Source: an uncultured Mycoplasmatota bacterium (GTDB lineage: Bacteria; Bacillota_I; Bacilli_A; RF39; UBA660). Taken from it: a stretch of DNA of 64,000 nucleotides. The notes under the pieces were generated by a model. It saw only the letters and a list, made by a program, of their open reading frames with translations, had not been told where the DNA came from and did no database searches. Numbering within the stretch: the first letter of the stretch is position 1; the number at the start of each line of letters is the position of its first letter. The DNA is taken from assembly GCA_948466315.1 (NCBI GenBank), contig CAOJZZ010000001.1:16931-80930 (forward strand), written 5' to 3'. The translations under genes were made by a program, and so were the position numbers. This document shows positions 2,736 to 46,459 of the stretch, piece by piece.

Positions 2736-2948
2736 CTAATCTAAAATTTCCAAATTTTGAATCAACAAATCACTATAACTAAAAGAACGAATTTGACAAT
2801 TATCTATCGTAATAATAAAAATAGCTGGATAAAAAGCAGTAATAACACCATTAAACTCTTCTATTTGATTCCTAGTTCCATGAAATCTAAACAAATGATT
2901 CACTCCAATATTCTCTTTAACAATATTTCTCATCTTATCTATTGTCAT
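2736..2948 (-). CDS. veg: Veg (DUF1021) biofilm/sporulation-associated small protein
   Basis: The 70-aa ...RFHGTRNQIEEFNGVITAFYPAIFIITIDNCQIRSFSYSDLLIQ... matches Veg. It sits immediately downstream of yabG as in Bacillus. Confidence 0.8.
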   Translation of the reverse strand: MTIDKMRNIVKENIGVNHLFRFHGTRNQIEEFNGVITAFYPAIFIITIDNCQIRSFSYSDLLIQNLEILD

Positions 2949-3478
2949 CTTGGATACCCCACATACATTGTTCCATTCGTAATAATCCCTCCCATTCCAT
3001 CTTTTCCATATTTTGTTTTCTCAATAAGTCGTATTAAATCAATACTTTGATTTCTGTCAGATAACGCTAACGATGAAGCAATAATAGCTGGATCAAGTGC
3101 ATGAATATTAATTCTCTTAGGACTAGAAGCAAAATTAGCACCAGCCTTTATCAATTCTTCATAATTAGATTGACAAGCCCCAGCAATAATTATTAATTTA
3201 TCCTGACTCTTTTCATACTTTCGAGCTACCTTAACTGCCTCTATAAAATTAGCTGTATTTTGATAATTACTATTATCATTTTCATCCTTCTTTTTATCGT
3301 AATAAGCATCATGTCCAGTAATAACCACTATATCTGGTCTAAAATCCTGTAATAATCCCAATATCCTATCAGGCATCTCCATCTCTGGCAAAGTAATACC
3401 ATTAGCCTTAATATTCATATTATGATAAAAGTTCATACACCGCTCTAAATAATCACGGTCACCATCTGCTAAACTTTT
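2945..3478 (-). CDS. yabG: yabG 3' segment, the C-terminal ~175 codons of sporulation-specific protease YabG. It has no start codon of its own and is open upstream only to an in-frame stop at 3476-3478.
   Basis: DIVVITGHDAY...LIIIAGACQSNYEELIKAGANFASSPKRINIHALDP matches the YabG C-terminal catalytic region. The conserved region begins ...ADGDRDYLERCMNFYHN directly after a stop codon, so the gene is split. Its partner segment is at 13008..13316. Confidence 0.8.
   Translation of the reverse strand, partial: KSLADGDRDYLERCMNFYHNMNIKANGITLPEMEMPDRILGLLQDFRPDIVVITGHDAYYDKKKDENDNSNYQNTANFIEAVKVARKYEKSQDKLIIIAGACQSNYEELIKAGANFASSPKRINIHALDPAIIASSLALSDRNQSIDLIRLIEKTKYGKDGMGGIITNGTMYVGYPR
3458..3461. 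other. Predicted recombination core (GTCA) at the left junction of the intervening element (attL/attR)
   Basis: GTCA and a cGTCAsC.tc pattern are shared with the right junction at 13047..13050. Joining across it restores the YabG frame. Confidence 0.5.
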
Positions 3479-3708
3479 TTAAGTAAGCAAACTTATCATT
3501 AAAAGAAACATAATATTCCTAACAAAATAAAAAGTAGTCTAATTTTTCTAAACATAAAAATATAAACTACTACTAAATCATTATAATAACCAATAATTAA
3601 ACATAATAAGATAAAATACTCTATAAACAAGAAACCTTTGATAACTACTACAAATTTATCTTCAGATAAAAGAAATTAACAATATATTATATAAATAAAA
3701 AATTATGT

Positions 3709-5220
3709 CTAATCAATAGAAAAATCAAAAGATATCTGTACTGTATTATCCTTATAAATTAAAATACTATTAATCAAATAACTTATATAATCTTTTGACA
3801 AAAAAGAATTATTAATAAAATCTCTATAATAATCCATTATCCTTTCTTTTTTATATATATTATCTCTTTTAAAAAGATAACTATTAAGTAATCTTATTTT
3901 TCTATCTTTTAACTTCACCTCATAGTCCTTACTCTCAACAAATTGAGAAACTATAATCTCTCCATTTACCTTTTTCATATATAAATCTTTTATATTTCTA
4001 TCACTAAGTTCAATATCCTTTTGTAACTCTAGTATTTTAGTATCTATTCTCATCTTACTAATTAACCTACTACAAAAACTATTAACAATCACACTACCAT
4101 CAACATAATTCAATAAAATATTCATTACCTGCTTACTAACAATATCCATAAGAACACTATCATAAATAACTCTATTGCAACCTTTTTTTCTACAACTAAA
4201 ATAATATTTAATTAAGCCATCTTTCTTTTCTACCTTACATACTACCATCTTTTTACCACACTCTCCACAAACAACTAAATTATTAAAACAACCATTATAT
4301 TCAATATTTTTATATTTCTTTAATCTTTTAACTTTAGAGTTAGCCTTAGAAAATAAAATATCATCAATAATTACAGGATGAACATTATAAAGTAATTTTC
4401 TCTCAAAAATAGATATTCCCTTTCTTTTTTTATCCCTATAACTCCTTTTAAAACTCTTTCTTTCAACCAAACATCCAGTATACGTTCTATCTCTTAAAAT
4501 TCTATATATAATCTTATCTGACCACTTACAATCACCACTACTACTGACATCTTTTCTTTTATACAACTTAGGAGGCAACACTTTATCATCATTCAAACTA
4601 TAAGCAACCTCACTTCTCGTCATACCAGAAGAAATACTTTCAAAAATTCTCTTTACAATATCAGCTGCATATTTATCAATTTCTAAAGTTCTTTTATTAT
4701 TAACTTTAACAATTTTATAACCATAAGGCGCATAAGGACCAATAAATTCTTTATTAGAAGTTTTCATTCTAGCAACCAACTCTCGCTTAACAGAGCTATC
4801 CTTAACATATCTATCATTAATAATAGATTTAATTTCTAAAACTATATCCCTACTTAAACTATCAGACCGAAAACTATCATAATAATCATTAATCGCTATA
4901 TACCTAATATTATTTCTAGGAAAATATTCACTAATATAATATACAGTATCAATTGCTTCTCTTCCAAGCCTTGATATATCTTTTGTAATAATACATTTAA
5001 CCCTACCATTTGAAATATCATCAAGTAGCTCCATAAAGGCTGGTCTCAAAAAATTAATTCCCGAATAACCATCATCTACATATTCCTTATCAATAACAAA
5101 ATTATTTGAAAGAGCATATTCCCTAATCAACACTAATTGGTTATCTATACTAACAGAATTATCCTGAACAGAACCTAAATCTTCAGAAGAGACCCTAACA
5201 TAAGCACATACATGTTCCAT
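3709..5220 (-). CDS. large serine recombinase (resolvase N-domain, recombinase domain, zinc ribbon, coiled coil)
   Basis: 503 aa. The N-terminal AYVRVSSEDL contains the catalytic Ser, followed by DDGYSG...SRLGRE. A zinc ribbon CGECGKKM...C..C is present. Confidence 0.9.
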   Translation of the reverse strand: MEHVCAYVRVSSEDLGSVQDNSVSIDNQLVLIREYALSNNFVIDKEYVDDGYSGINFLRPAFMELLDDISNGRVKCIITKDISRLGREAIDTVYYISEYFPRNNIRYIAINDYYDSFRSDSLSRDIVLEIKSIINDRYVKDSSVKRELVARMKTSNKEFIGPYAPYGYKIVKVNNKRTLEIDKYAADIVKRIFESISSGMTRSEVAYSLNDDKVLPPKLYKRKDVSSSGDCKWSDKIIYRILRDRTYTGCLVERKSFKRSYRDKKRKGISIFERKLLYNVHPVIIDDILFSKANSKVKRLKKYKNIEYNGCFNNLVVCGECGKKMVVCKVEKKDGLIKYYFSCRKKGCNRVIYDSVLMDIVSKQVMNILLNYVDGSVIVNSFCSRLISKMRIDTKILELQKDIELSDRNIKDLYMKKVNGEIIVSQFVESKDYEVKLKDRKIRLLNSYLFKRDNIYKKERIMDYYRDFINNSFLSKDYISYLINSILIYKDNTVQISFDFSID

Positions 5221-5221
5221 A

Positions 5222-6787
5222 TTAAACTAAACAATCCTCAACCTTTTTAAAATTATAATATATTCTAACACACTTATCCTTATCAATAGTAATTTTATTA
5301 ATTAACTCCCTGATTAAAAGTTTATTAAAACCTCTTCCCTCTAAAAAATCACTTATTATCTTTTTTCTAATATTAATATCTCTATTTTGCTCATTAAATA
5401 AATTTATCTCTTCTCTTAACTTAACAATAGAAGAAGATATCTTATCTCTATCGCTTACTAAAAATTCTTTAATTTTAATAAATTCACTATCTAAAATAAT
5501 TCCATTACTCTTATCCTTATATAAAGAAGCAATACTCTTATCTATTTCTCTAAGTTTAACAAGATCTTTTCTTAATAAATTCTCATTATACTCAATAAAA
5601 CTACATCGATTAAAAATTTTTTCATATTCTTCTAAAAGTCTATCAAAACAAACATACTTATTTAATAAATTCTTAATCTCACCTAAGACAAGTTCATTAA
5701 GCAAATCTTCCCTGTAATAATGCATAGTACAAACATTATTTCTATAAGTAGCATAACTTCTACAACAATATATAGCATAAACCTCATCTTTATAACGCTT
5801 ACATCTTCTTACTAGCATCACCTTACCACAATCTGCACAAACTACTAAGCCTTTCAATAAGTAATCATATTTTCTTTTTCTAATATCATAATAAGAATTT
5901 TTACAATTAACTCTTTCAAAAACTTCATAAGAAATAATAGACTCATGATTATTTTTATTTATAATCCACTTTTCCCTAGGTAGAAGTACCCTCTTCTTAG
6001 ATTTTAAACTAACACGTTCATACTTCCCTTGAACTAAAGTACCAGTATAAACCTCATTACTTAAAATACCTTTTATAGTAGAAGCTTTCCACAAATTAGT
6101 GGTAAAATTTTTACTAACATTTCTACCTTTATATAGATTAGGAGGTAAAATCCCCCTATCAGTAAGATTCCTAGCAATCATCATAGTAGAAAAACCCTTA
6201 TCTCTCATAGAAAATATTTCTTTAACTATTAAAGAAGCATATTCATCAATTACCAATAAACGACTATCTTCTAAAGACCTTTTATATCCATATGGAACAG
6301 AACTGCCAACATACAAACCTTTCTTCATTAAACTATGCCTAGCACTCTTTATTTTTCTAGAAGTATCTTTTAAATACATGTCATTAATTACAGTTTTAAA
6401 AGGAATAATATCTTCAACCCCATTAGAATTAAAAGAATCATAACCCTCAAGTATTGCTATAAAACGAACATTATGTTCTGGAAAATATTTAAATATATAA
6501 TTACCTGTTTCAATAAACTCTCTACCTAACCTTGAGGTATCCTTAACAACAACGCAATTAACAAATCCATTCTCAATATCTTGAATTAATCTTTTAAAAC
6601 CTGGTCTCAAAAAATTCCCACCAGAATAACCATCATCTACATAATAATCATATATTTCTATTCCTTTACTTTTAACATATTCACTTATATAACTTTTCTG
6701 GTTAACTATACTAGAACTTTCAAATTCCTTATCATCATCCCTAGACAATCTAATATATAAACCAGCCTTATACTTAAAATTATCCAT
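5222..6787 (-). CDS. large serine recombinase, second of a tandem pair in a ccrA/ccrB-like arrangement
   Basis: 521 aa. The N-terminal LYIRLSRDDD contains the catalytic Ser, followed by DDGYSGGNF...SRLGREF. A zinc ribbon CADCGKVM is present. There is a 1-nt gap to the downstream recombinase. Confidence 0.9.
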   Translation of the reverse strand: MDNFKYKAGLYIRLSRDDDKEFESSSIVNQKSYISEYVKSKGIEIYDYYVDDGYSGGNFLRPGFKRLIQDIENGFVNCVVVKDTSRLGREFIETGNYIFKYFPEHNVRFIAILEGYDSFNSNGVEDIIPFKTVINDMYLKDTSRKIKSARHSLMKKGLYVGSSVPYGYKRSLEDSRLLVIDEYASLIVKEIFSMRDKGFSTMMIARNLTDRGILPPNLYKGRNVSKNFTTNLWKASTIKGILSNEVYTGTLVQGKYERVSLKSKKRVLLPREKWIINKNNHESIISYEVFERVNCKNSYYDIRKRKYDYLLKGLVVCADCGKVMLVRRCKRYKDEVYAIYCCRSYATYRNNVCTMHYYREDLLNELVLGEIKNLLNKYVCFDRLLEEYEKIFNRCSFIEYNENLLRKDLVKLREIDKSIASLYKDKSNGIILDSEFIKIKEFLVSDRDKISSSIVKLREEINLFNEQNRDINIRKKIISDFLEGRGFNKLLIRELINKITIDKDKCVRIYYNFKKVEDCLV

Positions 6788-6795
6788 AAAAGCCC

Positions 6796-6915
6796 CTATT
6801 TTTCAGTTTGTCTTTCTAATACATATTTTTCAAACAATTCTAATATTTTTTTATTAATATCAACCCCTTCATCATCATATACTGCTAAAACTAAATTATC
6901 TCTTTTTTTCATCAT
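6796..6915 (-). CDS. small ORF (39 aa) immediately upstream of the recombinase pair. It is a candidate excision-directionality or regulatory protein.
   Basis: My own translation: GGGAGG then ATGATG gives MMKKRDNLVLAVYDDEGVDINKKILELFEKYVLERQTEK*. It ends 8 nt before the recombinase ATG. It is too short for the ORF track. Confidence 0.3.
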   Translation of the reverse strand: MMKKRDNLVLAVYDDEGVDINKKILELFEKYVLERQTEK

Positions 6916-7731
6916 TAGCCTCCCACCTAAACATATGAACCTAAGTTTATGTAAAGACCAAAATTCAATCACCAAAAAACAGCATAGATTTTTCTATACT
7001 TTTTTTGAATATATATTGATATAAAAAATTTAAAAATATAACAATTACTAAGAAAGCTATTGTACTAGTAAAATATCGACACCAATAACTCCCTTTGCCT
7101 TAAAAAATTATAATTAATTTTTATTTTTTAAATAAATTTGCACAATAAAACTTATAATTATTAAATTTAACTTAAAAACTAAATATTTATAACAAATTAC
7201 CTAAGTAATTTACAATTAATAGATAAAATACGATCATGCTAAACTATTATCCATTAACTTCTATCAATTCATTAAGTTTAGAACCATTATAATTAATTTT
7301 ATTTAAATATTTATCAAAAGTATATTTTAATACAGTAAGATATATAAGATTGGGCCCTAAACCTTACAAAATAACTATAAAAGTCTAATACTTCTAAAAA
7401 TACTTATATTATCAAAACTATAATACTTAATTAAACATTAATTTACTTTTAAACAATTAATACTATGCATCAATCCCTTAGAAAATAATTGGATAAATTC
7501 TAGATTCGACTATAACTATTTTGACTAACTTAACAAAAATTCACTTAAGAGCTAGAACAAAATAAAACTATTAAATATATGAAAATATCCAAAAAAGAAT
7601 CAATATATATAATTTAATAACTACTAAGTATAAGCAGCAATACCAATAGTTACAACCAAATTTCTACAAAACATTACATTTAAACTTAAATTTAACTATT
7701 TTCAAATACTAAAACTATAAAATATTTATTA

Positions 7732-10700
7732 TTATACACTATCAATAATATCTAAAAATTCAGTATCCGTATCAATGAGTCGATTAATTAAATTATTAAA
7801 AATATGACTCATATTATTTATATAATTAGGATAAAAACCCATAGAGATTGGCACATTGTAATAACTAATATCGTCAATATTCCTAATATATAAATCTTTA
7901 TCTAAATAATTATCTTTTATAAAGATACTACATAACTCTTCTAAACCAAAGTATTCTACCATACTTTTATTATATTTAGGACCTGCCCTAGATGGAAATA
8001 ACATTTTAGTAATACATTTTGATAAAATTGAAAGATTTTCTAATAAAATATTATTATCAACATTATATTTATCAATTAAACTATTTCCTAATAACAAATT
8101 AATCTTTTTTAATTTATCTCTTAATTTAATAATACCCTGATTTTTGATAAATCCTAAATTACTAATAATAACAATATCTAAAACATCTTTTAATTCATAA
8201 TTAGAATAACTATCTATCAAATTACTCATATTTTGAATATTATAACTATTATTAAATTGACTATTACTTACACTATAAATACCATTTGAATATTCTATAT
8301 TTATAAATTTATTAACATTTGCTAAAGATCCATCACTAAATAATATTTTAGTGACAATTAATTGATAAGTATTATTATTCTCTATTGGTATAACTACCTT
8401 ATATAAAAACTCATCATCAAAAAACACCTCATAAAATATATCATTAATACAAATCTTACTAATAGATACATTTTTATTATGAATAATATTGAAGTTAAGA
8501 GCAATATAATCATTTAACTCGTGATTTAACGAATCACCAAATACATTTAAAATATCAACATGTGTCTTTGCTTCCACTTCTTTTTCAAATAACACAGTCT
8601 CGTTATTATTCACCTGACTAGAAAAACCAATAATTTTTACTATATACTTAGAAGAAATATTAGTATCAAAATTCTCCTCTATTTTATTATTATTAAAATC
8701 CTTAGTATTAATATCCTTAGAATCAATTACCATTCCTTTATCATCTAATAATACCAATTTAACTTTATAAATACTATTATCTTTATCATTTAATTCTGCT
8801 TTTACTAATAATCTATATAACTCTATATTCTCTTCTACTGAAAAATTCAAAATACTAGCCTTACGTTTAACTACATCAATATCTAATTTCTTTTCCTCAT
8901 CAAATATTATTCTTTTTCCGTTATCTAAGACAACCCCTTCAATATATATATCCTGTTTACCCAATTTATTAAACTGTAAAATAACCGCACTATAAATATC
9001 TCCATCTTTTATAACATCATAATATTTCCCATTAACTATTACTTTTTCTACAAAACATAAACTATTATTAACACTAGAAAAAACAATTTTTGGACTTTGT
9101 CCTTTTTCAAAGATATTAGTAGTATCAACACCATTAGTAATTACAATATTATCTATCTTAAATTGATAATCTTCCACTAATTGTAATTTTTTAGTAGTCT
9201 CTACTACATTTTTATGACTAATTTCACTAGTACCTGATTTATCCATATCTAAATCATATTTCAAAATAAATTTAACATTATATAATTTTCCAGCCTCAAC
9301 TGGAATAAAAATACTATTTTTCCCCTTTTTAATTGACTTACTATCAATAATATTGCCTACATCATCATCTACTCTAATAATAGAAGAAGAAATACTATTA
9401 TCATCATCTATTAAATTAAATGATAAATTTATCTTTTTTTCATCAACATATTCTTGCGTTATATAATTATCTATTCTAGGAACATCTTTTAAAACCTTTA
9501 TTTTTCTTGTATAATCAACATCTACTCTGTTACCATTATCAAATAATACCTCTGTAAAATGATATTTCTTAATCCCAGATGAATCACCAGTATTTACTCT
9601 TACTGAATATTGACTGTTACTATCAAAAACTTTATCTACCTTATACTTAACTCCATCTATTACAACTTCCACTATATTAAAATCATTTCTAACTCCTGCA
9701 ATAAATGATAAATCTATATCTTCATCTTTATTAAATGTTTCCTCCTCAACCTGCTTTATAGTAGATAAATTAACCTCATTTACTAAATCACCATCAATTT
9801 TCTTATTCAATCTTGATAAATCAGTAATTGTAATACTTTTATCATTATTTATATCGGCATTTTCTAAAGCTTTATCATCTAAAGATTTTATCTGAGTTAA
9901 ATGATACTCTAATGAGTCAACATCCAGATAATCTATTACACCATCATCATTTAATTCTCCCTTTTGCATAAATTTATAATATAATGAACTACATACTATA
10001 AGTCCTTGCAAAAACACTAATAAAGCTACTATAAATGCAAAAATTTTCTTATTACTATAATCATCGTCATAATAATAATCACTACTAAATCTTCTAATAA
10101 TTGCATATATTATAATTACTAATAAAAATACAACCACCAAGATTATTTCATTAAACTTACTTTTCTCTTGGAAATTACTAACTACTTTAAAATTTTCATT
10201 AATATAAGAAGATTTAATTGTATCTTTAGTAGTAAAATTACTATTTAAATGCTCTACTTTAGAATCATCTAATTTCCCACTATCATTAATAACATCTACT
10301 TTAACAATCTTATCATCAATAAATAAATCTTTTCTACCATCGGAGGCAACAATATCTTTTAACTTTATTTCTGTTGTACCAATATCAACATCATTTCTTA
10401 CCTTAAAACTAATTACTAACAAATCTTCTATCTTTTCATTACCATCTTTTCTAATAGAAACAAACTCACCTGTAATTTTATTATATTGTAAATTCCCCCA
10501 ATAGTTTTGACATAAAAAATCTTTCTCCGATAATTCCTCAAAAATATTTTTATTATAATCAAGTCTTGCTTTATAAGCATTAATACCGAGACCATCTTCC
10601 ACATATTGCTCTAACTTTAAAGTAACAACTAAAGTCTGACCACTTTTTATTTTCTCTTGATTAATACTTGCAGCAAAATCTAATTTAGACTTAGCCAATA

Positions 10701-10767
10701 CTGGTATAACAGAAAAAAGCAGCAAAAAAACAATAAACATTATGGTTATGTTAATAATTTTTTTCAT
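7732..10767 (-). CDS. large membrane-anchored surface protein with signal peptide, a cohesin-like N-domain, two TM helices and a dockerin-like Ca-binding repeat pair
   Basis: Signal peptide MKKIINITIMFIVFLLLFSVIPVLA. TM helices at ~aa 205-225 and 240-262. Dockerin-type loops: NDDGVIDYLDVDSL and DINNDKSITITDLSRL. The C-terminal ~700 aa is repetitive and beta-rich. Confidence 0.55.
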   Translation of the reverse strand: MKKIINITIMFIVFLLLFSVIPVLAKSKLDFAASINQEKIKSGQTLVVTLKLEQYVEDGLGINAYKARLDYNKNIFEELSEKDFLCQNYWGNLQYNKITGEFVSIRKDGNEKIEDLLVISFKVRNDVDIGTTEIKLKDIVASDGRKDLFIDDKIVKVDVINDSGKLDDSKVEHLNSNFTTKDTIKSSYINENFKVVSNFQEKSKFNEIILVVVFLLVIIIYAIIRRFSSDYYYDDDYSNKKIFAFIVALLVFLQGLIVCSSLYYKFMQKGELNDDGVIDYLDVDSLEYHLTQIKSLDDKALENADINNDKSITITDLSRLNKKIDGDLVNEVNLSTIKQVEEETFNKDEDIDLSFIAGVRNDFNIVEVVIDGVKYKVDKVFDSNSQYSVRVNTGDSSGIKKYHFTEVLFDNGNRVDVDYTRKIKVLKDVPRIDNYITQEYVDEKKINLSFNLIDDDNSISSSIIRVDDDVGNIIDSKSIKKGKNSIFIPVEAGKLYNVKFILKYDLDMDKSGTSEISHKNVVETTKKLQLVEDYQFKIDNIVITNGVDTTNIFEKGQSPKIVFSSVNNSLCFVEKVIVNGKYYDVIKDGDIYSAVILQFNKLGKQDIYIEGVVLDNGKRIIFDEEKKLDIDVVKRKASILNFSVEENIELYRLLVKAELNDKDNSIYKVKLVLLDDKGMVIDSKDINTKDFNNNKIEENFDTNISSKYIVKIIGFSSQVNNNETVLFEKEVEAKTHVDILNVFGDSLNHELNDYIALNFNIIHNKNVSISKICINDIFYEVFFDDEFLYKVVIPIENNNTYQLIVTKILFSDGSLANVNKFINIEYSNGIYSVSNSQFNNSYNIQNMSNLIDSYSNYELKDVLDIVIISNLGFIKNQGIIKLRDKLKKINLLLGNSLIDKYNVDNNILLENLSILSKCITKMLFPSRAGPKYNKSMVEYFGLEELCSIFIKDNYLDKDLYIRNIDDISYYNVPISMGFYPNYINNMSHIFNNLINRLIDTDTEFLDIIDSV

Positions 10768-10900
10768 ACCATTCTCCCCCCAAATTAGCTATTGCCTAAT
10801 ATACTAATATAAAATCAACTAACTTGCAAACATTTTTTCTCTAAATAAAGAAAATATCAATAAAAACTACTATAATTAAACAAGTTTCCTCTACTTTAAC

Positions 10901-12214
10901 TTATTTTTTACTTTCAGCACTATTAACATTTCTATCAGAAAAACGTCTTACAAAACTTTTTACCTCTTCATCAAAACCACTATAACAAATACTACTATCT
11001 AAAATATCAAAATTACTATCTAACATAATATTTTTATTAGGTAATACATCTAACTCTAAGATTTTCTCAATTTTCAATCTTTGTCTATAAAAACCATATA
11101 TTTGTTCAACTTTATCTAAAGTTGTAAATTCTTTTATTACATTAGTCATATCAGCTATTATATTACTTAAATTTTCTGAACCTATAACTTTATAATAATT
11201 TTTTAAATTATCATTTCGAGAATCACACAACTTTGTATATACTATATAGTACTCATCCTCTGCCAAATTACTCTTCAAAAAAGATAGCAAAGTTCGCAAT
11301 TTAGGCTCAATTACAACAAGCATTCTATCATCTACAACTTTATTTATAGGATTTACTACACCATTTCTTTGTATTACTTCAAAAATAGGTTTAAGTTTCT
11401 TTAACGCTTTTGACTCAAGTTGATTAATTCTAACCCGCGTTAACTCTAAATCCTTACCAACCTCTTCCTGTGTCTTAGCAGGACTTTTTATTATTCTATT
11501 ATAAATAATATAATAATCTCTTACACTCAAAACATTATATAAAGTCCTTAAAAGAATTAATTCATCATATTCTCTTTCAACGTCTAAATAAACATTTTCT
11601 CCATATGAAACAGTATCAATTAATTCCTCGTCTAGATTATCAGGTAATTTTTGATTTAATGATAATGTATCAAAAGAACTTTCCCTTTCTATATACTCTA
11701 AAAAACTATCACTAATTTTTAAGTGCTTAATTAATTGATTCCTTGTAGGATATACACCATTATCTCTAAAATATTCTTGAACATATCTCGAATATTTTCT
11801 CCTCTGACTATTAAAACGCACTGACAATTTCATATTTTTATCAATTTTATCAATATTTCTTTGTAATGATTTTTCCATTGCATAACCTAAATATGTAGAT
11901 AATTTAACTCCTTTATTTATATCAAACAATCTAACTGCATTCATTAAAATTAAATTATTCTCTTGAATTAAATCTAAAAAATCAAGATTACTACAATTAT
12001 TAATAAAGCTACCTGCTTTAAAAAAAGCTAAGCCTAAATTATGTATTACTAATCTTTGAAATGAAGTTAAATCACCATCTATTTTATACCTTTTTAATAG
12101 CTCTTCTGTCTCCTCACCTGTTAATAAAGGATAATTCTTCATATCATCAATATATATATCAATTATTTCTAAACTTCTACTCTTATACATATACTTTCCC
12201 CTCTTTTTCGTCAT
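10901..12214 (-). CDS. sigma-70 family RNA polymerase sigma factor with a ~150 aa C-terminal extension
   Basis: Region 2-like LTSFQRLVIHNLGLAFFKA and FDINKGVKLSTYLGYAMEKSL. Region 4 HTH TQEEVGKDLELTRVRINQLESKALKKLK. Confidence 0.65.
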   Translation of the reverse strand: MTKKRGKYMYKSRSLEIIDIYIDDMKNYPLLTGEETEELLKRYKIDGDLTSFQRLVIHNLGLAFFKAGSFINNCSNLDFLDLIQENNLILMNAVRLFDINKGVKLSTYLGYAMEKSLQRNIDKIDKNMKLSVRFNSQRRKYSRYVQEYFRDNGVYPTRNQLIKHLKISDSFLEYIERESSFDTLSLNQKLPDNLDEELIDTVSYGENVYLDVEREYDELILLRTLYNVLSVRDYYIIYNRIIKSPAKTQEEVGKDLELTRVRINQLESKALKKLKPIFEVIQRNGVVNPINKVVDDRMLVVIEPKLRTLLSFLKSNLAEDEYYIVYTKLCDSRNDNLKNYYKVIGSENLSNIIADMTNVIKEFTTLDKVEQIYGFYRQRLKIEKILELDVLPNKNIMLDSNFDILDSSICYSGFDEEVKSFVRRFSDRNVNSAESKK

Positions 12215-12346
12215 ATTATATCATATTAACTAAAAAGAAAAAAGAAAAAGCTTAAAAAGTTATTAAATATTTGACACTTACACAAAAATAGTAGAAAATT
12301 ATAGACAAAACAAAAAAAGAATCACTAAATGAATTCCTTCTTTTTA

Positions 12347-12808
12347 CTACCCACAAAGTAATTTACAATATTTGGAAAATAACTTATAAGTATCAGGATT
12401 TTTACTAATAAATTCAATATTAGAAAAATCATAGTTAACTGCATTTTTTGATATTTCTTCTAATATACTTTGATCTTTAGTATATATCTCAACAAAAACA
12501 TTATCAACTATAAATATGATAAGTTGGCAAGAACTTTTTAAAAATTGATTATAATTCTCAATATCATCTATATCCTTATTTTTGTAATGCATCTGTAAAT
12601 TTAAAAAGATTGGATAGTGTTCTTTTTGAATAATCTTTCGAAACTCATCGTTATTATAATTAGTTTTCTCAAAAAAAGCTTTTCCTTGTTCTCCCAAAAC
12701 TTCCTCATTCTCTATTTTCCACATATATTGTGAACAATCTATATCATGAAGTATTTTAGCCAAAATTTTACTATATTCATTTTTTATTATAAACTTTATC
12801 CCTATCAT
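12347..12808 (-). CDS. hypothetical protein (element cargo)
   Basis: 153-aa ORF with no recognisable motif. Confidence 0.4.
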   Translation of the reverse strand: MIGIKFIIKNEYSKILAKILHDIDCSQYMWKIENEEVLGEQGKAFFEKTNYNNDEFRKIIQKEHYPIFLNLQMHYKNKDIDDIENYNQFLKSSCQLIIFIVDNVFVEIYTKDQSILEEISKNAVNYDFSNIEFISKNPDTYKLFSKYCKLLCG

Positions 12809-13007
12809 AAAACCTCCTCAGATGTTAAAAATTAAATCATTAATTTCTACACAGTTCTTATGTTATGTAATGTTGATCAAAATTAATATTAAATTTAGTT
12901 ACTTAAGCATACGTCAGCCCCCTGTTTAGGAGAGCAATTTTTTTTAAAATTTTGGCGTTTTTTGTCATTTTAGAGATTTTTTTATAATTTTCTATTTTTC
13001 ATTTTCT

Positions 13008-13316
13008 TTATTTTATAAAGGTTTCAGAGTGGTTACTTAATCGAACGTCAGCGTCAATATGCAAAATCTTACCAGGTAAATAAAAATACTGACTTCTATC
13101 TATCTTTATATCTTTAACATTACGTTCAATTACCTTTTTATCATAATCAGTATCACCTCTACCAGCCTTAACTAAATCATCTACCTCACAATCAGCATAA
13201 AGTCTTAAATCTACACCTTTCAAAATAGCAACATTACCTTCAAAATCTATAATTTTAAATAAAATATCATGCTGATGAGATATTCGTGTAACAAAATCTC
13301 CAATTCTAAAATCCAC
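13008..13316 (-). CDS. yabG: yabG 5' segment. ~90 N-terminal YabG codons are fused to 12 element-encoded codons (VRLSNHSETFIK*).
   Basis: MDFRIGDFVTRISHQHDILFKII...LRLYADCEVDDLV...YLPGKILHIDAD matches the YabG N-terminus (QIGDMVARKSYQMDVLFRII...HMPGKVLHLDGD). It is directly downstream of ksgA as in Bacillus. Confidence 0.8.
   Translation of the reverse strand: MDFRIGDFVTRISHQHDILFKIIDFEGNVAILKGVDLRLYADCEVDDLVKAGRGDTDYDKKVIERNVKDIKIDRSQYFYLPGKILHIDADVRLSNHSETFIK
13047..13050. other. Predicted recombination core (GTCA) at the right junction of the intervening element
   Basis: acGTCAgCgtc here compared with cgGTCAcCatc at 3456..3466. Confidence 0.5.
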
Positions 13317-18904: not shown

Positions 18905-19110
18905 AATAAAAAAAGATTATTAAAATATAAGGACGACAAAATCGCGGTACCACCTTATTTTATAATAATCTAATATTATACACTTTAATAGATAACGCTT
19001 ATCAGCGACTATACCTACATATCGATATAGTAGTTCAAAAGCCATATCCTAAAAAAAGACTATCCTCTTTTTCAGCAACCGAGGTCTCTAATATAGTCAA
19101 AAATTTTAAG
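18905..19110 (-). promoter_or_regulatory. T-box riboswitch leader of metS
   Basis: The minus strand carries AAGGTGGTACCGCG (plus 18944..18957). This sits inside a terminator helix GATTATTATAAAATAAGG/CCTTATATTTTAATAATC followed by U7 (plus 18908..18970). It lies upstream of an aminoacyl-tRNA synthetase. Confidence 0.6.
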
Positions 19111-19162
19111 ACTCTTCATCACAACTTTTAAAAAATACAATCCAAGTATAACATATCAAATT

Positions 19163-31263: not shown

Positions 31264-31283
31264 AATATCACTCCAAAATAAAA

Positions 31284-31364
31284 GTGCACATAAAAGGAGG
31301 TCCTTAAGGCTGCTATCTTCCGATCCTGACCTATTTCAAACACTTTTATTGCACAAGTTAATTC
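31284..31364 (-). ncRNA. ffs: signal recognition particle RNA, short (4.5S-like) form lacking an Alu domain
   Basis: The minus strand reads GUGCAAUAAAAGUGUUUGAAAUAGGUCAGGAUCGGAAGAUAGCAGCCUUAAGGACCUCCUUUUAUGUGCAC. It is a closed hairpin carrying the domain IV consensus AGGUCAGG-UCCGGAAGGAAGCAGCC-AAGG and is followed by a U-run. Confidence 0.75.
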
Positions 31365-31396
31365 TAATATAAATAATTCTTTTTGTAAACTATATT

Positions 31397-42162: not shown

Positions 42163-42209
42163 AATACCACCCCGCAAGAAAACTAAACTACGATTAGTAT
42201 AAATTAAAT

Positions 42210-42386
42210 TGTGGAAAAAAGAAACAATTTTATGATAAAAAAATTATCAACAATTAATCAACAAACTTTTCCACTAAAAAACATATTGATATACTTCAAA
42301 AAAATAAAGTTTTCCACATTTTCCACAGTTTTTTATAAACACAATAGTAAAACTTATTCCACAACAATGTGGAAATTGTGGATTGC
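42210..42386. promoter_or_regulatory. oriC DnaA-box cluster upstream of dnaA
   Basis: DnaA-box 9-mers with one or two mismatches at 42210, 42310, 42319, 42355, 42368 and 42378 (TGTGGAAAA, TTTTCCACA x2, TTATTCCACA, TGTGGAAAT, TGTGGATTG). An AT-rich DUE-like tract follows. Confidence 0.75.
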
Positions 42387-42848
42387 AAATTAAAAAATAA
42401 TAAAAAAAATAAACTTTTAAATCACTCACAAAAAATTTATAATTAAAGATAACTATATACTTATTCTAGATAATTAAAATTTTCAATTTGATTAATAAAA
42501 GACTTAAGAAACTGGTATGAAGATATTAAATTTTTATTATTACCACCCTACTCTATAATACTAGCCAGAAAAATTCTAAATACTAAATAATAATTAGCTA
42601 CTAAATACCAATAAATTTCTTAGACTTGTTAAATAATAAAAAACTTCTATGTATAAAAATAACACTATATACTAATTCATCAATAATAATTTGATAAAAT
42701 ACAAAATTTTCCCTTCCTAAAAGATAAACATTTCTATACCAATATTTATGAATTACTTTTAGTATTACAACTAAATTAACACTTAATATAAATAAGCTCT
42801 CTTAAAAATAATGAAAAACTATCCTAAATAAATATTTTAAAAATATAA

Positions 42849-42878
42849 TTGACAAATCTAAACAATTCTTATTATAAT
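42849..42878 (+). promoter_or_regulatory. sigmaA-type promoter of rpmH-rnpA
   Basis: TTGACA (42849-42854), an 18-bp spacer, then TATAAT (42873-42878). Confidence 0.5.
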
Positions 42879-42907
42879 AATGGGGATTTATGTCTGGAGG
42901 TGGAAGA

Positions 42908-43030
42908 ATGAAAAGAACATATCAACCAAATAATCGTAAAAAAGCAAAAAAATTAGGATTTTTTGCACGTAAAAAAACAAATATTTTAAATCGTCGTCGT
43001 CGCAAGGGACGTAAACGTCTTTGCAAATAA
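42908..43030 (+). CDS. rpmH: 50S ribosomal protein L34
   Basis: My own translation gives [52 protein letters not shown] precedes it. It is below the ORF-track length cutoff. Confidence 0.95.
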
Positions 43031-43078
43031 AATACCGCTGATAAAAACAGTGGTTTTTTACTCTTATTATAAAGATAG

Positions 43079-43441
43079 GTGATACTAGTGAGAAAATTAT
43101 ATATAGTAAAACATCAAAGAGACTTTGATAATCTCATAAAAAATGGTAAAAAACAAAAGAATAAAAGTTTTATTATATATTATGAATCTAATAATTTACC
43201 ATATGATCGATTTGGAATTTCAGTAGGCAAAAAACTAGGTAATGCAGTATATCGTAATAAATACAAAAGAAAAATAAGGTCAATACTAGATAGTTATAAA
43301 AAACTATATATAAATAATAAAGATTATATTATAATATTAAGAGGAAGTGCCAAAGACAAAAATTATCAAGAATTAAAAGAAGAACTTCTAACACTAATGA
43401 ATGTTATAAGGAAGGAAATAAAAGATGAAAAGAAAAAATAA
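43079..43441 (+). CDS. rnpA: ribonuclease P protein component
   Basis: A basic 120-aa protein directly after rpmH, containing KKLGNAVYRNKYKRKIR. Confidence 0.9.
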   Translation: MILVRKLYIVKHQRDFDNLIKNGKKQKNKSFIIYYESNNLPYDRFGISVGKKLGNAVYRNKYKRKIRSILDSYKKLYINNKDYIIILRGSAKDKNYQELKEELLTLMNVIRKEIKDEKKK

Positions 43442-44360
43442 TAAATTTAGAATAATAATAGTATTGATATTATTATTAATAGCAACAGGTTGTACAACAA
43501 CACTAACAGATAAAAATAAACAACCAGTAAAAAATAAAGAAACAGGTCAAAATTTAACCAAAAATATTATCTGTCAGCCAACTAATAAAATAACTATCAA
43601 AGCCTATGAAAAGAATGGGGTAGACATAGAAAAATTACCACCTTGTGACAAATTTAAAATAACCTCAGGAAAATATGAAGGACTATGGACCAGTATTTTT
43701 GTAAAACCTTTAGCTTTTGTATTAATATTATTAGGAAAACAAATAGGAAATTATGCAATATCATTAATAATTATTAGTCTAATTATTCGATTGATAGCTT
43801 TCCCAATTACTAAAAAAACAGCCCTACAATCAGAATTAATCAAAAAGGCCCAACCAGAGCTAGATAGAATTCAAAAAAAGTATAAAGACAAACAAGACCA
43901 AGAAGCAATGATTAAACAAAATCAAGAAATGCTAATGATTTATAAAAAATATAATATAAATCCAATGTCAGGGTGCCTATTCTCAATGCTACAATTACCT
44001 TTATTTATTGCTTTTTTCGAAGCAGTACAAAGAACACCAGCAATATTCGAAGATAAATTTTTAGGATTACAACTCGGAACCACTCCAGCAGTAGGAATAT
44101 CTCAAGCAACATTTTATGCTTATCTAATATTAATCATTTTAATAGCCCTAACAACATACTTCTCTTTTAAAATGAATGTAACTGGAAATATGTCTGATCC
44201 AAGTATGAAAATGATGCCACTGATGATGTCAGTTATGATTGTAATTACAGCAATTTTTATGCCATCTGGTCTAGGAATATATTGGATTACTTCTAATATT
44301 TGTACAATAGTACAAAATATCTTGGTGAAAAGGAGTAAAGAAGCTAATGGAAAAGCATAA
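43425..44360 (+). CDS. yidC: membrane protein insertase YidC/SpoIIIJ (lipoprotein form)
   Basis: Lipobox LLIATGC, followed by the conserved 5-TM 60-kDa insertase core. Confidence 0.9.
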   Translation: MKRKNNKFRIIIVLILLLIATGCTTTLTDKNKQPVKNKETGQNLTKNIICQPTNKITIKAYEKNGVDIEKLPPCDKFKITSGKYEGLWTSIFVKPLAFVLILLGKQIGNYAISLIIISLIIRLIAFPITKKTALQSELIKKAQPELDRIQKKYKDKQDQEAMIKQNQEMLMIYKKYNINPMSGCLFSMLQLPLFIAFFEAVQRTPAIFEDKFLGLQLGTTPAVGISQATFYAYLILIILIALTTYFSFKMNVTGNMSDPSMKMMPLMMSVMIVITAIFMPSGLGIYWITSNICTIVQNILVKRSKEANGKA

Positions 44361-44961
44361 ATATCAAGGCAGAACAAAAGAAGATGCCATCCTGCAAGCA
44401 ACAATAAACTTACAAGAAACTGAAAATAACTTATTAATAAAAGAGTTAGAAGCTAGTAAAAATGGTTTATTAAAAAGTAAAAAAGTAGAAATAGAAGTAT
44501 TAGAAAAAAGAGATGTTATTAAATATATCAAAGACTATATAATAAAATTATTAAAAGATATGGGTTTTACAATAGATATTGAAATAAAAAATAAAAGTGA
44601 AATTCCAACATATATAATTTATTCAGATAATGATGCCTTACTTATTGGCAAAAACGGTAAAAATCTTAAAGCTTTATCAATTATTGTTAGTCAGCATATA
44701 AATAAAGAAATAGGTAATAACTTCAAATTTATAATTGATATAAACGACTATAAAGAAAAAAGAAATAAATCGTTAGAAATACTTGCAAAAAAAATTGCTA
44801 AAGAAGTAGCAGAAAGTAAAATAGAAGCTAAATTAGATTCAATGAATTCATATGAGCGAAGAATTATTCATAATACTTTAATTAATAACCCAAACGTATC
44901 TACTAAAAGTGAAGGTGAAGAACCTAATCGTTATGTTGTAGTTTATCCAAAACAAAGTTAA
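44347..44961 (+). CDS. jag: Jag/KhpB RNA-binding protein (KH and R3H domains)
   Basis: The R3H motif SMNSYERRIIHNTL is near the C-terminus, and the gene is co-ordered with yidC. Confidence 0.85.
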   Translation: MEKHKYQGRTKEDAILQATINLQETENNLLIKELEASKNGLLKSKKVEIEVLEKRDVIKYIKDYIIKLLKDMGFTIDIEIKNKSEIPTYIIYSDNDALLIGKNGKNLKALSIIVSQHINKEIGNNFKFIIDINDYKEKRNKSLEILAKKIAKEVAESKIEAKLDSMNSYERRIIHNTLINNPNVSTKSEGEEPNRYVVVYPKQS

Positions 44962-45106: not shown

Positions 45107-46459
45107 ATGGATGACACAATAGTAGCAATTTCAACGACCATGGGAGTAGGTGCTATATCAATAATTAGATTAAGTGGAAAAGAAGCTTTAGCTATAGTCA
45201 ATAATTGCTTTCAAGGAAAAGACTTAACCACAGTAAAATCTCATACTATACATTATGGTTATATTAAAGATAATGAAGAATTAATTGATGAAGTATTAGT
45301 ATCAGTTATGAAAAGTCCAAAAACTTTTACAAGAGAAGACGTAATTGAAATCAACTGTCATGGAGGCATAATTGCTACTAACAGAATATTACAAACAATG
45401 TTAAATCATGGAGCAAGATTAGCAGAAGCGGGAGAATTTACTAAAAGAGCCTTTCTAAATGGAAGAATAGACCTAGTTGAAAGTGAAGCAGTAATGGATT
45501 TAATTCAAAGTAAAAGTGAAGAATCAAGGAAATTAGCTTTATCACAATTAACTGGAAAAACATCAAATCTAATTACTAATTTTCGTGACAAATTAAAAGA
45601 TTTACTATCAGCAATAGAAGTAAATATTGATTATCCAGAATATTATGATATAGAAATTATCACCAAAGAAAAAATCAAAGACCAAATAAATGTACTCAAA
45701 AAAGATTTACAAAGATTAATAAAAGAATCTCAAAACTCAACAACTATCAAAAATGGTATCAAAACAGTAATAATAGGCAAACCAAATGTAGGAAAAAGTA
45801 GTATTTTAAACAAATTAATAGAACAAGAAAAAGCTATTGTGACAGATATAGCAGGTACAACTCGTGATATTGTAGAAGGAGAAATATATTTAGATGGAAT
45901 ACTATTAAATATTATTGACACAGCAGGAATAAGAGATACTGATAATATAGTAGAAAAAATAGGTGTAGAAAAAAGCCTTTCTATGATAAACGAAGCTGAT
46001 TTAGTAATTACCGTTTTTAATAGTAATGAAGAATTAGCCCAAGAAGATAAAAAAATATTAACACAAACAGAACAAAAACAAAGAATAATTGTCTTAAATA
46101 AAAATGATTTACCTAAAAATTTAAAACTACCTATAGATTTAAAAAATGTTGTAGAAACAAATACCAACACTATCGAAGGCATTAATCCTATCAAAGAAAA
46201 AATAAAAGAATTATTCAATTTAGAACAATTACAGACAAAGGATTATACCTATCTTGCCAATAGTAGACAAATATCTCTAGCCAAAAAATCATATCAAAAT
46301 TTACTAGATGCTGAAAATAGTATTCAAGAAGATTTACCAGTAGATATGGTAGAAATAGATTTAAAGGAATGCTTTGATAATTTAGGACAAATAATAGGAG
46401 CAACCTACAACGAAGAAATAATTGATAATCTCTTTGAAAACTTTTGTGTAGGAAAATAG
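45107..46459 (+). CDS. mnmE: tRNA modification GTPase MnmE
   Basis: G-domain GKPNVGKSS, DIAGTTRD and DTAGIR, with a C-terminal CxGK. Confidence 0.95.
   Translation: MDDTIVAISTTMGVGAISIIRLSGKEALAIVNNCFQGKDLTTVKSHTIHYGYIKDNEELIDEVLVSVMKSPKTFTREDVIEINCHGGIIATNRILQTMLNHGARLAEAGEFTKRAFLNGRIDLVESEAVMDLIQSKSEESRKLALSQLTGKTSNLITNFRDKLKDLLSAIEVNIDYPEYYDIEIITKEKIKDQINVLKKDLQRLIKESQNSTTIKNGIKTVIIGKPNVGKSSILNKLIEQEKAIVTDIAGTTRDIVEGEIYLDGILLNIIDTAGIRDTDNIVEKIGVEKSLSMINEADLVITVFNSNEELAQEDKKILTQTEQKQRIIVLNKNDLPKNLKLPIDLKNVVETNTNTIEGINPIKEKIKELFNLEQLQTKDYTYLANSRQISLAKKSYQNLLDAENSIQEDLPVDMVEIDLKECFDNLGQIIGATYNEEIIDNLFENFCVGK

Follow-up and report, generated by a model that had tools for sequence, protein, structure and literature searches.

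Several described systems resemble parts of the locus analyzed here. The gerE-intervening element gin of Bacillus cereus is not a prophage and encodes girA, girB, and girC together with a tiny directionality factor, GirX (PMC5595907). The yabG-intervening element yin of Clostridium botulinum V73 is a prophage with one serine recombinase, and the paper that described it stated that no other yabG insertion exists in public genomes (PMC10747680). Sigma factors with C-terminal extensions have been described in the extracytoplasmic function (ECF) group (PMC7730460, PMC4598750), and sigma factors are also encoded by Firmicute phages and prophages, as in B. anthracis lysogens and in SigF/G-like cases (PMC2716549; bioRxiv 10.1101/2021.11.12.468384). 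The locus considered here lies in a 64,000-nucleotide stretch of DNA from an uncultured Mycoplasmatota bacterium (contig CAOJZZ010000001.1), hereafter the window, in which yabG is interrupted by an element that carries a gene for a sigma-70-family factor with a long extension past region 4.

The best explanation of this gene, with a probability of roughly 60%, is that it encodes a functional, host-derived alternative sigma factor with a housekeeping-type promoter, and that the extra domain past region 4 is regulatory or partner-binding. Full region 2-3-4 sigma factors with a conserved domain after region 4 are rare, and this domain marks a family seen only in uncultured, spore-forming low-GC Bacilli. 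An earlier note on this DNA, made from the sequence alone, had singled out the gene, and it missed the membership of its product in a small family of chromosomal sigma genes that lie beside oriC in related genomes.

A complete sigma module with altered promoter-reading residues

The minus strand does contain the open reading frame (ORF) 10901..12214, which encodes 437 amino acids (aa) and has a translation that holds the peptides quoted in the earlier note. Residue numbers refer to this ORF unless stated, the phmmer alignment to SigA using the numbering of a 429-aa product. The sigma core, with regions 1.2, 2, 3, and 4, occupies aa 9-280 (11375..12190, minus strand), as delimited by Pfam, NCBIfam, a family alignment, AlphaFold2 (AF2) with Foldseek, and phmmer. 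Pfam, NCBIfam, and phmmer agree with the earlier assignment to the sigma-70 family with recognizable regions 2 and 4. In the hidden Markov model (HMM) search that had been proposed, both Pfam models reach their cut-offs, Sigma70_r2 marginally and Sigma70_r4 with 29.3 bits (cut-off 24.1) at aa 247-275, and region 1.2 (r1_2) is weakly matched. The NCBIfam model RpoD_Cterm spans aa 53-275, corresponding to model positions 3-225 of 238 (E-value [E] 1.6e-26), and is followed by the RpoS, Firmicute RpoD, and RpoH models, with SigF and SigG far weaker. PHROG 351 (sigma factor) matches with E 2.6e-38, and a phmmer alignment of aa 10-267 (429-aa numbering) to SigA of C. difficile and of B. subtilis runs through regions 1.2-4.2 (E 1.5e-21). 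An AF2 model built from 14 family members has a predicted local distance difference test (pLDDT) score of 80-92 in regions 2, 3, and 4, and with this model Foldseek retrieves more than 160 sigma chains, including SigA and sigma-S (best E 4.8e-10).

The DLIQE motif, which grips the beta' coiled-coil of RNA polymerase, lies at aa 81-85, the region 4.2 helix-turn-helix (HTH) lies at aa 247-275, and TRVRINQLESKALKKLK lines up with the recognition helix in region 4.2 of SigA. The 14 family members show little or no variation in DLIQE, in Y108 (the counterpart of sigma-70 Y430), and in the 'SL' of region 3.2. Alignment to SigA, in E. coli sigma-70 numbering, gives the replacements W433Y, W434A, Q437K, T440Q, H455R, E585V, and R588N; in known sigma-70 structures, W433 and W434 act in promoter melting, Q437 and T440 in reading the -10 element, H455 in recognition of an extended -10, and E585 and R588 in reading the -35 element. 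Region 1.1 is absent, the protein beginning at region 1.2, and region 3 is present in both the alignment and the model. By sequence, residues ~10-280 are a complete 1.2-2-3-4 module that is most like primary and group-2 sigma factors, and the protein looks like an alternative sigma factor in which a primary-like scaffold is combined with a different promoter specificity. Because DLIQE and the scaffolds of regions 3.2 and 4.2 are kept while the reading residues are changed, the protein would be expected to bind core polymerase and to read promoters other than housekeeping ones.

Other sigma classes were considered and set aside. A group 1 (primary) sigma factor is ruled out by the missing region 1.1 and the replaced canonical -10 and -35 residues, with the RpoD models scoring 87-93 bits against cut-offs of 354-572. 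The sporulation factors SigF, SigG, SigE, and SigK are ruled out since equivalog scores are not reached: the SigG model gives 51.7 bits (cut-off 372) and the SigF model 50.2 (cut-off 321), and SigE, SigK, and SigI are not among the 25 best of 41 matching NCBIfam families. That rank, together with a neighboring gene whose product is not RsgI-like, also rules out a SigI/RsgI pair. An ECF (group 4) factor, which has regions 2 and 4 only and measures ~170-220 aa, is ruled out by the presence of region 3. A PADLOC match to MzaA of the MZA anti-phage system comes through the generic sigma 2-4 module (76 bits against a cut-off of 800), and the long N-terminal part and partner genes of MzaA are missing here, ruling out that identity.

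Start codon and selection on the gene

The true start of the gene is probably the second ATG, at 12190 (M9), which gives a protein of 429 aa and a coding sequence of 10901..12190. This start is favored because a conserved TATAAT (12220..12215) directly touches the first ATG, because the interval from the first ATG to the second, which contains a GGGGA ribosome-binding site, is conserved at the DNA level and not at the protein level when the window is compared with L001, a contig with a related, diverged variant of the element, and because database gene calls for the protein are all of 429 aa. The sigma homologue of L001 is 66% identical in aa to that of the window, homologues of 66-100% identity occur on independent contigs, and intact, near-identical ORFs are found on about ten independent contigs. 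Compared with the L001 homologue, the sigma part has a ratio of nonsynonymous to synonymous substitution rates (dN/dS) of 0.38, aa 281-395 have one of 0.33, and the last 40 residues have one of ~2. From these ratios and the intact copies it follows that purifying selection acts on the sigma module and on the ~115 residues that open the extension, and not on the tail; the homologues on independent contigs and the low dN/dS likewise exclude a chance ORF.

A conserved domain, probably derived from region 4

The earlier note had remarked that the protein continues, unusually, for ~150 aa past region 4. The extension is real and measures ~157 aa, comprising a linker and a conserved, folded, all-helical domain (aa ~281-395; 11030..11374, minus strand), defined by profile searches, AF2, and hhalign, and then a variable tail (aa 396-437; 10904..11029, minus strand), recognized by its mostly low AF2 confidence and its dN/dS of ~2. 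Among 1.84 billion representative proteins, a profile of the extension finds 23 clusters only, and in almost all of these the domain starts at about residue 265-310, directly after region 4. An alignment of 19 sequences shares the pattern L-x-P-L-x-P ... L-K-x7-Y-x-I-x-Y-T-K ... I-x-E-L-D-I-x-P. Structure prediction of the C-terminal part, as the earlier note had suggested, yields a confident bundle of six to seven helices for the isolated domain, with pLDDT 90-96 at residues 21-110 (~90 residues). The domain has no match in Pfam or among PDB sequences, and no significant Foldseek match among PDB folds or the viral structures of BFVD.

A source for the domain is suggested by its comparison with region 4 of the same family. 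In hhalign the two align with 88.8% probability (E 2.5e-6) over 57 columns, with their L-x3-E-Y-Y-I-I-Y motifs coinciding, and HMMs of the domain and of region 4 cross-match weakly in many members. The C-terminal domain is thus probably a diverged duplicate of region 4. Region 4 is basic, with an isoelectric point (pI) of 9-10, whereas the domain has a pI of ~5-9 (median ~7) and is near-neutral. Because the basic charge of region 4 would have been lost after duplication, a second DNA-reading role is disfavored, and the domain is more likely a protein-binding or regulatory module. If it does regulate the sigma factor or recruit a partner, it would represent a new means of controlling polymerase specificity.

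A chromosomal sigma family beside oriC

Peptide patterns of the closest family had no match in GTDB representative genomes; a degenerate DNA pattern recovered four loci with family members in metagenome-assembled genomes (MAGs), and the pattern together with contig look-ups placed members in MAGs labelled uncultured Bacilli, Tenericutes, or Mycoplasmatota. On five contigs (L010, L011, L017, L022, and L026), family genes lie between jag (R3H/KhpB) and trmE, beside dnaA-rnpA-yidC and hence oriC. Two copies are often present at this site, hypothetical neighbors vary, and no conserved anti-sigma-like neighbor was found beside the chromosomal paralogues. These jag-linked relatives are close to the window's host, with DnaA 79% and YidC ~71% identical. 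The window has no gene between jag (44347..44961) and trmE (45107..46459), so that the site is empty, and no second family copy is present in its 64 kb. GC skew in the window flips sign near 43 kb (~42200..43400), between dnaA and rnpA-yidC-jag, and the window therefore spans the replication origin.

Among the jag-linked proteins, the one most similar to the element-borne sigma factor, at 42% identity, is a protein of 1165 aa on L011, whose Jag is also the closest to that of the window. Four family clusters (P0122, P0123, P0127, and P0129) consist of proteins of 1165-1204 aa, in which the sigma module and the same C-terminal domain are followed by ~700 aa with many faint HTH or region-4-like matches, and a protein of 687 aa (P0126) contains two complete sigma modules fused. 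The giants and the double-sigma fusion are encoded beside oriC after jag (e.g., L011 695..4192), and no description of giant multi-HTH or double-sigma proteins was found. One chromosomal paralogue (L017 5094..6196) is split into two ORFs of 193 and 183 aa and is either a pseudogene or an assembly error.

Because relatives carry the family at the jag-trmE site and that site is empty here, the simplest reading of these sequences is that a lineage-specific host sigma gene, together with its own housekeeping-type promoter (a T-run and a TG-extended -10), was captured from the chromosome by the yabG element.

The same family also offers grounds for reading the protein as a sigma-derived decoy that does not initiate transcription and competes for core polymerase or for a partner of the C-terminal domain, or else as a decaying hitch-hiker. 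W433, W434, and several base-contact residues are replaced, the family has shuffled its domains into the multi-HTH forms of 1165-1204 aa and the double-sigma fusion, and the L017 paralogue is split. Decay, however, is at odds with dN/dS of 0.33-0.38 in both domains and with the intact ORFs on about ten contigs, both the motif for core binding and the HTH of region 4.2 are well kept, and many bona fide alternative sigma factors lack the WW pair. We consider a decoy or hitch-hiker improbable, and a functional alternative sigma factor the better account.

The yabG-intervening element

The element is ~9.59 kb long, extends roughly from 3463 to 13052, and has all of its genes in the direction of yabG, in the order DUF2691, sigma factor, 1011-aa protein, ~815 bp of non-coding DNA, 39-aa ORF, and two recombinases. 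The 5' part of yabG (13047..13316, minus strand) ends in attL, with the core ttGACGcTGAC at 13057..13047; junction comparison places attR (caGATGgTGAC, 3468..3458) with the 3' part of the gene at 2945..3466 (minus strand). Joined, the halves encode 260 aa, which align gap-free and with up to 89% identity to intact YabG proteins (258-263 aa). A natural empty site, GCATATTGATGGTGACCGTGATTAT (L036; junction HIDGDRDYLERC), was found through contigs with a KsgA identical to that of the window. In sample SRR22050017 the empty site (L036 5006..5054) and an occupied one (L008 9540..9592) occur together on contigs that end on the same k-mer, so either the site is polymorphic or the element excises. Comparison of attB, attL, attR, and an attP-type junction in L004 locates the crossover in GATG, 1-5 nucleotides (nt) upstream of TGAC. 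A first guess at the junction, GCTGACC, was wrong, and a metagenome scan with it missed the empty site; the real attB is GATGGTGACC.

At 13053 (minus strand) the window's attL reads C (GACG), and L034 and L040 show the same change; attR, attB, and other copies read T there. Should AT or TG be the central dinucleotide, attL and attR would be mismatched, which could block excision and leave yabG permanently split in the strain. An additional copy of the element-side att half-site lies ~130 bp inside the element (12898..12917 compared with 13032..13051, minus strand; ctgacgtatgcttaagtaac and ctgacgttcgattaagtaac, 17/20 identical); it is also present in L004 and may be an accessory recombinase-binding site.

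The yabG site has at least four occupying variants. On L004 (1..6490) and L006, a second, related element sits between the 5' half of yabG and the first element and encodes three recombinases, a PemK toxin, an Xre-like protein, and a region-4-type HTH protein, the tandem elements being joined by the attP-type junction CAGATGCTGACATTCG (L004 ~6470-6490). At least two further, different sequences occupy the same position in yabG (L001 2804..2850; L037 4934..4976; L042 1357..1560), with attL sequences beginning TTGATTCTGTAGG and TTGATACTGATTGCCCC. In this lineage yabG is a recurrent landing site. An occupied site may change the properties of the spores of gut bacteria, because YabG governs maturation of the spore coat and, in clostridia, the sensing of germinants.

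Next to attR lies a tandem pair of large serine recombinases, one of 521 aa (5222..6787, minus strand) with Resolvase, Recombinase, and Zn_ribbon_recom domains, and one of 503 aa (3709..5220, minus strand) with the same domain families and 35% identity to the first. The tandem pair is kept in the second element (55% and 48% identity) and recalls CcrA/CcrB and girA/girB. Directly upstream of the 521-aa recombinase is an acidic ORF of 39 aa (6796..6915, minus strand; MMKKRDNLVLAVYDDEGVDINKKILELFEKYVLERQTEK), whose homologue in L004 (2553..2678) likewise precedes the second element's recombinase; it is a candidate recombination directionality factor and resembles GirX in size. The ~815 bp upstream of it (6916..7731) have no Rfam match and lack any ORF as long as 60 aa; some patches there are conserved in L001, among them GCATGATCNTATTTTATCTA and the ~200 bp that immediately precede the small ORF. 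Across the whole element Rfam gave no match, and phage genes are absent. Outside it, the window has a T-box leader ahead of metS (18926..19131) and a small signal recognition particle (SRP) RNA (31272..31365).

By its anatomy the element belongs to the skin/gin/yin class of sporulation-gene-intervening elements. The earlier note had taken it to be excised during sporulation; the precise split of yabG and the large serine recombinases support the intervening-element part of that view, and developmental excision in the mother cell is suggested by analogy with yin and gin (PMC10747680, PMC5595907). The note's corollary, that excision removes the sigma factor from the mother-cell chromosome, is weak as an argument: a sigma-A-type promoter would act before excision as well, and removal from the chromosome does not mean that the factor is lost, because the excised circle can still be transcribed. 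The circle of the skin element persists in the mother cell and can be transcribed.

Promoters, neighboring genes, and possible targets

The sigma gene is preceded by a promoter-like block (12215..12250, minus strand) with a T-run, TG at 12223-12222, and TATAAT at 12220..12215, which is kept in L001 and in the chromosomal paralogues. Upstream of both element and chromosomal copies the arrangement is a T-run, then TATG-N-TA(T/A)AAT, then a GGGG ribosome-binding site, and the trmE promoters resemble it. A promoter block common to the element copy and the chromosomal paralogues suggests housekeeping-type expression, and growing cells probably transcribe the gene with their housekeeping holoenzyme. 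Consensus scans for promoters and terminators were uninformative in this DNA of 75% A+T (104 sites against 104 expected).

Downstream, the gene at 7732..10767 (minus strand) encodes a membrane or surface protein of 1011 aa with a signal peptide, two transmembrane (TM) helices, a dockerin (Pfam), and repeats; inspected by eye, it also has a cohesin-like N-terminal module, the TM helices lying between this module and the dockerin. It directly follows the sigma gene in both element variants (window and L001, 66-67% aa identity), and its dN/dS of 0.5 is relatively high. Homologues are chromosomal in related MAGs, for example between rplS and lon, where they have no sigma neighbor and are preceded by canonical sigma-A-type promoters, TTGACT/TTGAAA-17-TAAAAT/TATAAT; judged by these homologues, the gene looks like captured host cargo as well. 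A role as an RsgI-like anti-sigma factor was rejected, with a cytoplasmic loop of ~15 aa between the TM helices (by eye) and no anti-sigma Pfam match. The DUF2691 gene (12347..12808, minus strand) is cargo of the window-type element only, and a toxin-immunity pairing of its product with the surface protein was dismissed for the wrong gene order, the lack of DUF2691 in L001, and the lack of a toxin domain.

The earlier note had proposed that the sigma factor drives the adjacent surface-protein gene, and the pair could be read as a cassette of activator and target that is on where the element is present and lost where it has been excised. The gene order is the same in both diverged variants, identity to L001 is 93% over the last ~60 bp of the intergenic spacer (10768..10900, minus strand) and ~80% in the coding DNA on either side, the genes are not separated by a predicted terminator, and the spacer lacks the TG-extended -10 of the other promoters inspected in the lineage. 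Yet this conservation is not above that of the best-conserved coding stretches, several coding windows equaling it, and the spacer contains a housekeeping-like TTGCAA-17-TAGTAT with the ribosome-binding site GGGGGGAG. The canonical promoters and sigma-free surroundings of the chromosomal surface-protein homologues also speak against such a cassette, as do the unrelated neighbors of the chromosomal sigma paralogues. Motif discovery, which the earlier note had recommended, gave GTTRATWTKATATWA as common to the upstream regions of the two genes, at chance level (31 of 100 shuffles as good), and no motif that links the sigma factor to a target. Because no terminator intervenes, a joint transcript starting at the sigma promoter accounts for the adjacency just as well and is a sufficient explanation, and nothing specific points to the surface gene as a target; such a cassette is unlikely.

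Tn916-type elements encode a sigma-like protein, Orf7, that is thought to regulate excision and transfer, and the sigma factor might similarly be the element's own regulator, switching on the small ORF and the recombinase operon and thereby controlling excision or transfer. Region-4-type HTH and Xre-like proteins in the tandem second element (L004/L006) fit this idea, as does the conservation with L001 of ~200 bp upstream of the small ORF. The usual home of the family, however, is the chromosome beside oriC with no recombinase near, the recombinase operon is separated from the sigma gene by a 3-kb gene and ~815 bp of non-coding DNA with poor conservation, and no shared motif was found. Known intervening elements, moreover, use host sigma-E or sigma-K and a directionality factor (PMC5025042, PMC5595907). 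A mother-cell-type promoter upstream of the small ORF, CATATGTT, was discarded as too near the ribosome-binding site and without a conserved -35 region. The earlier note's suggestion that the recombinase operon is a target likewise finds no specific link across the ~4 kb between the genes, and regulation of the element by its own sigma factor seems to us very unlikely.

Weighing the interpretation

Several points weigh against the interpretation of the protein as a functional, host-derived alternative sigma factor. The Sigma70_r2 match, at aa 74-110, scores 24.2 bits against a cut-off of 24.0, and every NCBIfam sigma model scores well under its cut-off. Loss of W433 and W434 could weaken promoter melting, and initiation and core binding are inferred in a setting where no promoter motif tying the protein to any target was found. 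The C-terminal domain resembles region 4 only modestly, with best Foldseek template modeling scores of 0.46-0.48 at E ~8, which is not significant. TATAAT-like sequences are common in DNA of 75% A+T, and only 64 kb of the genome was seen, so that a further family copy elsewhere is possible.

A broader conception would make the protein a mobile member of an undescribed sigma class, in which a de-basified duplicate of region 4 serves as a partner-binding or auto-regulatory module, relatives of ~1,200 aa have the region-4 unit expanded into HTH-like arrays, and residence on a yabG element brings inheritance by the forespore, possible uncoupling from the chromosome in the mother cell, and compartment- or strain-specific reprogramming of the host; as a whole, this conception is speculative and quite unlikely.

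Comparison with known systems

Mobile elements of spore-formers were already known to carry sigma factors (PMC2716549; bioRxiv 10.1101/2021.11.12.468384), and C-terminal extensions were known from ECF factors (PMC7730460). The earlier note's picture of intervening elements as passive cargo overlooked the first of these, regulators including sigma factors having been reported on such elements and on prophages. What is new is a conserved, structurally unmatched domain, apparently derived from region 4, on a full-length sigma factor; a very rare sigma family that is encoded beside oriC and includes giant multi-HTH proteins; and the capture of a member of that family by a yabG-intervening element. 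The carrier shows that intervening elements can capture host regulators and surface proteins.

With SigA/RpoD and RpoS the protein shares regions 1.2, 2, 3, and 4 in the same order and an end-to-end alignment, with DLIQE and the region 4.2 HTH in common; it differs in lacking region 1.1, in its replaced contact and WW residues, and in the extra domain of ~115 aa with its tail. ECF41, ECF42, and ECF56 factors and SigI, with its SigI_C domain, likewise have an extra domain after the promoter-recognition domains that likely modulates activity. Those are two-domain sigma factors with SnoaL-like, TPR, or SigI_C additions, whereas the present protein has a full region 3, and Pfam, PDB sequence, and Foldseek searches detected no similarity of its extension to SnoaL-like, TPR, or SigI_C domains. 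Phage and prophage sigma factors are also encoded on mobile elements of spore-formers and share PHROG 351. Among phage records, however, none has the C-terminal domain, matches being ~30% identical and confined to aa 18-275; unlike the SigF/G-like phage proteins, the protein described here is not SigF/G-like, and its carrier is without phage genes.

Of the intervening elements, gin is the closest in style, being small and non-viral with several serine recombinases and a tiny ORF; its target gene differs, it has not been reported to carry a sigma factor, and the likeness is drawn at the family level. The yin element shares with the present one a precisely split yabG, a serine recombinase-based organization, and the coexistence of empty and occupied sites. 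In contrast to yin, a prophage of another bacterial class, the window element measures 9.6 kb and carries two recombinases together with sigma and surface-protein genes, and the at least four yabG insertions of this lineage contradict the statement that yin is unique (PMC10747680).

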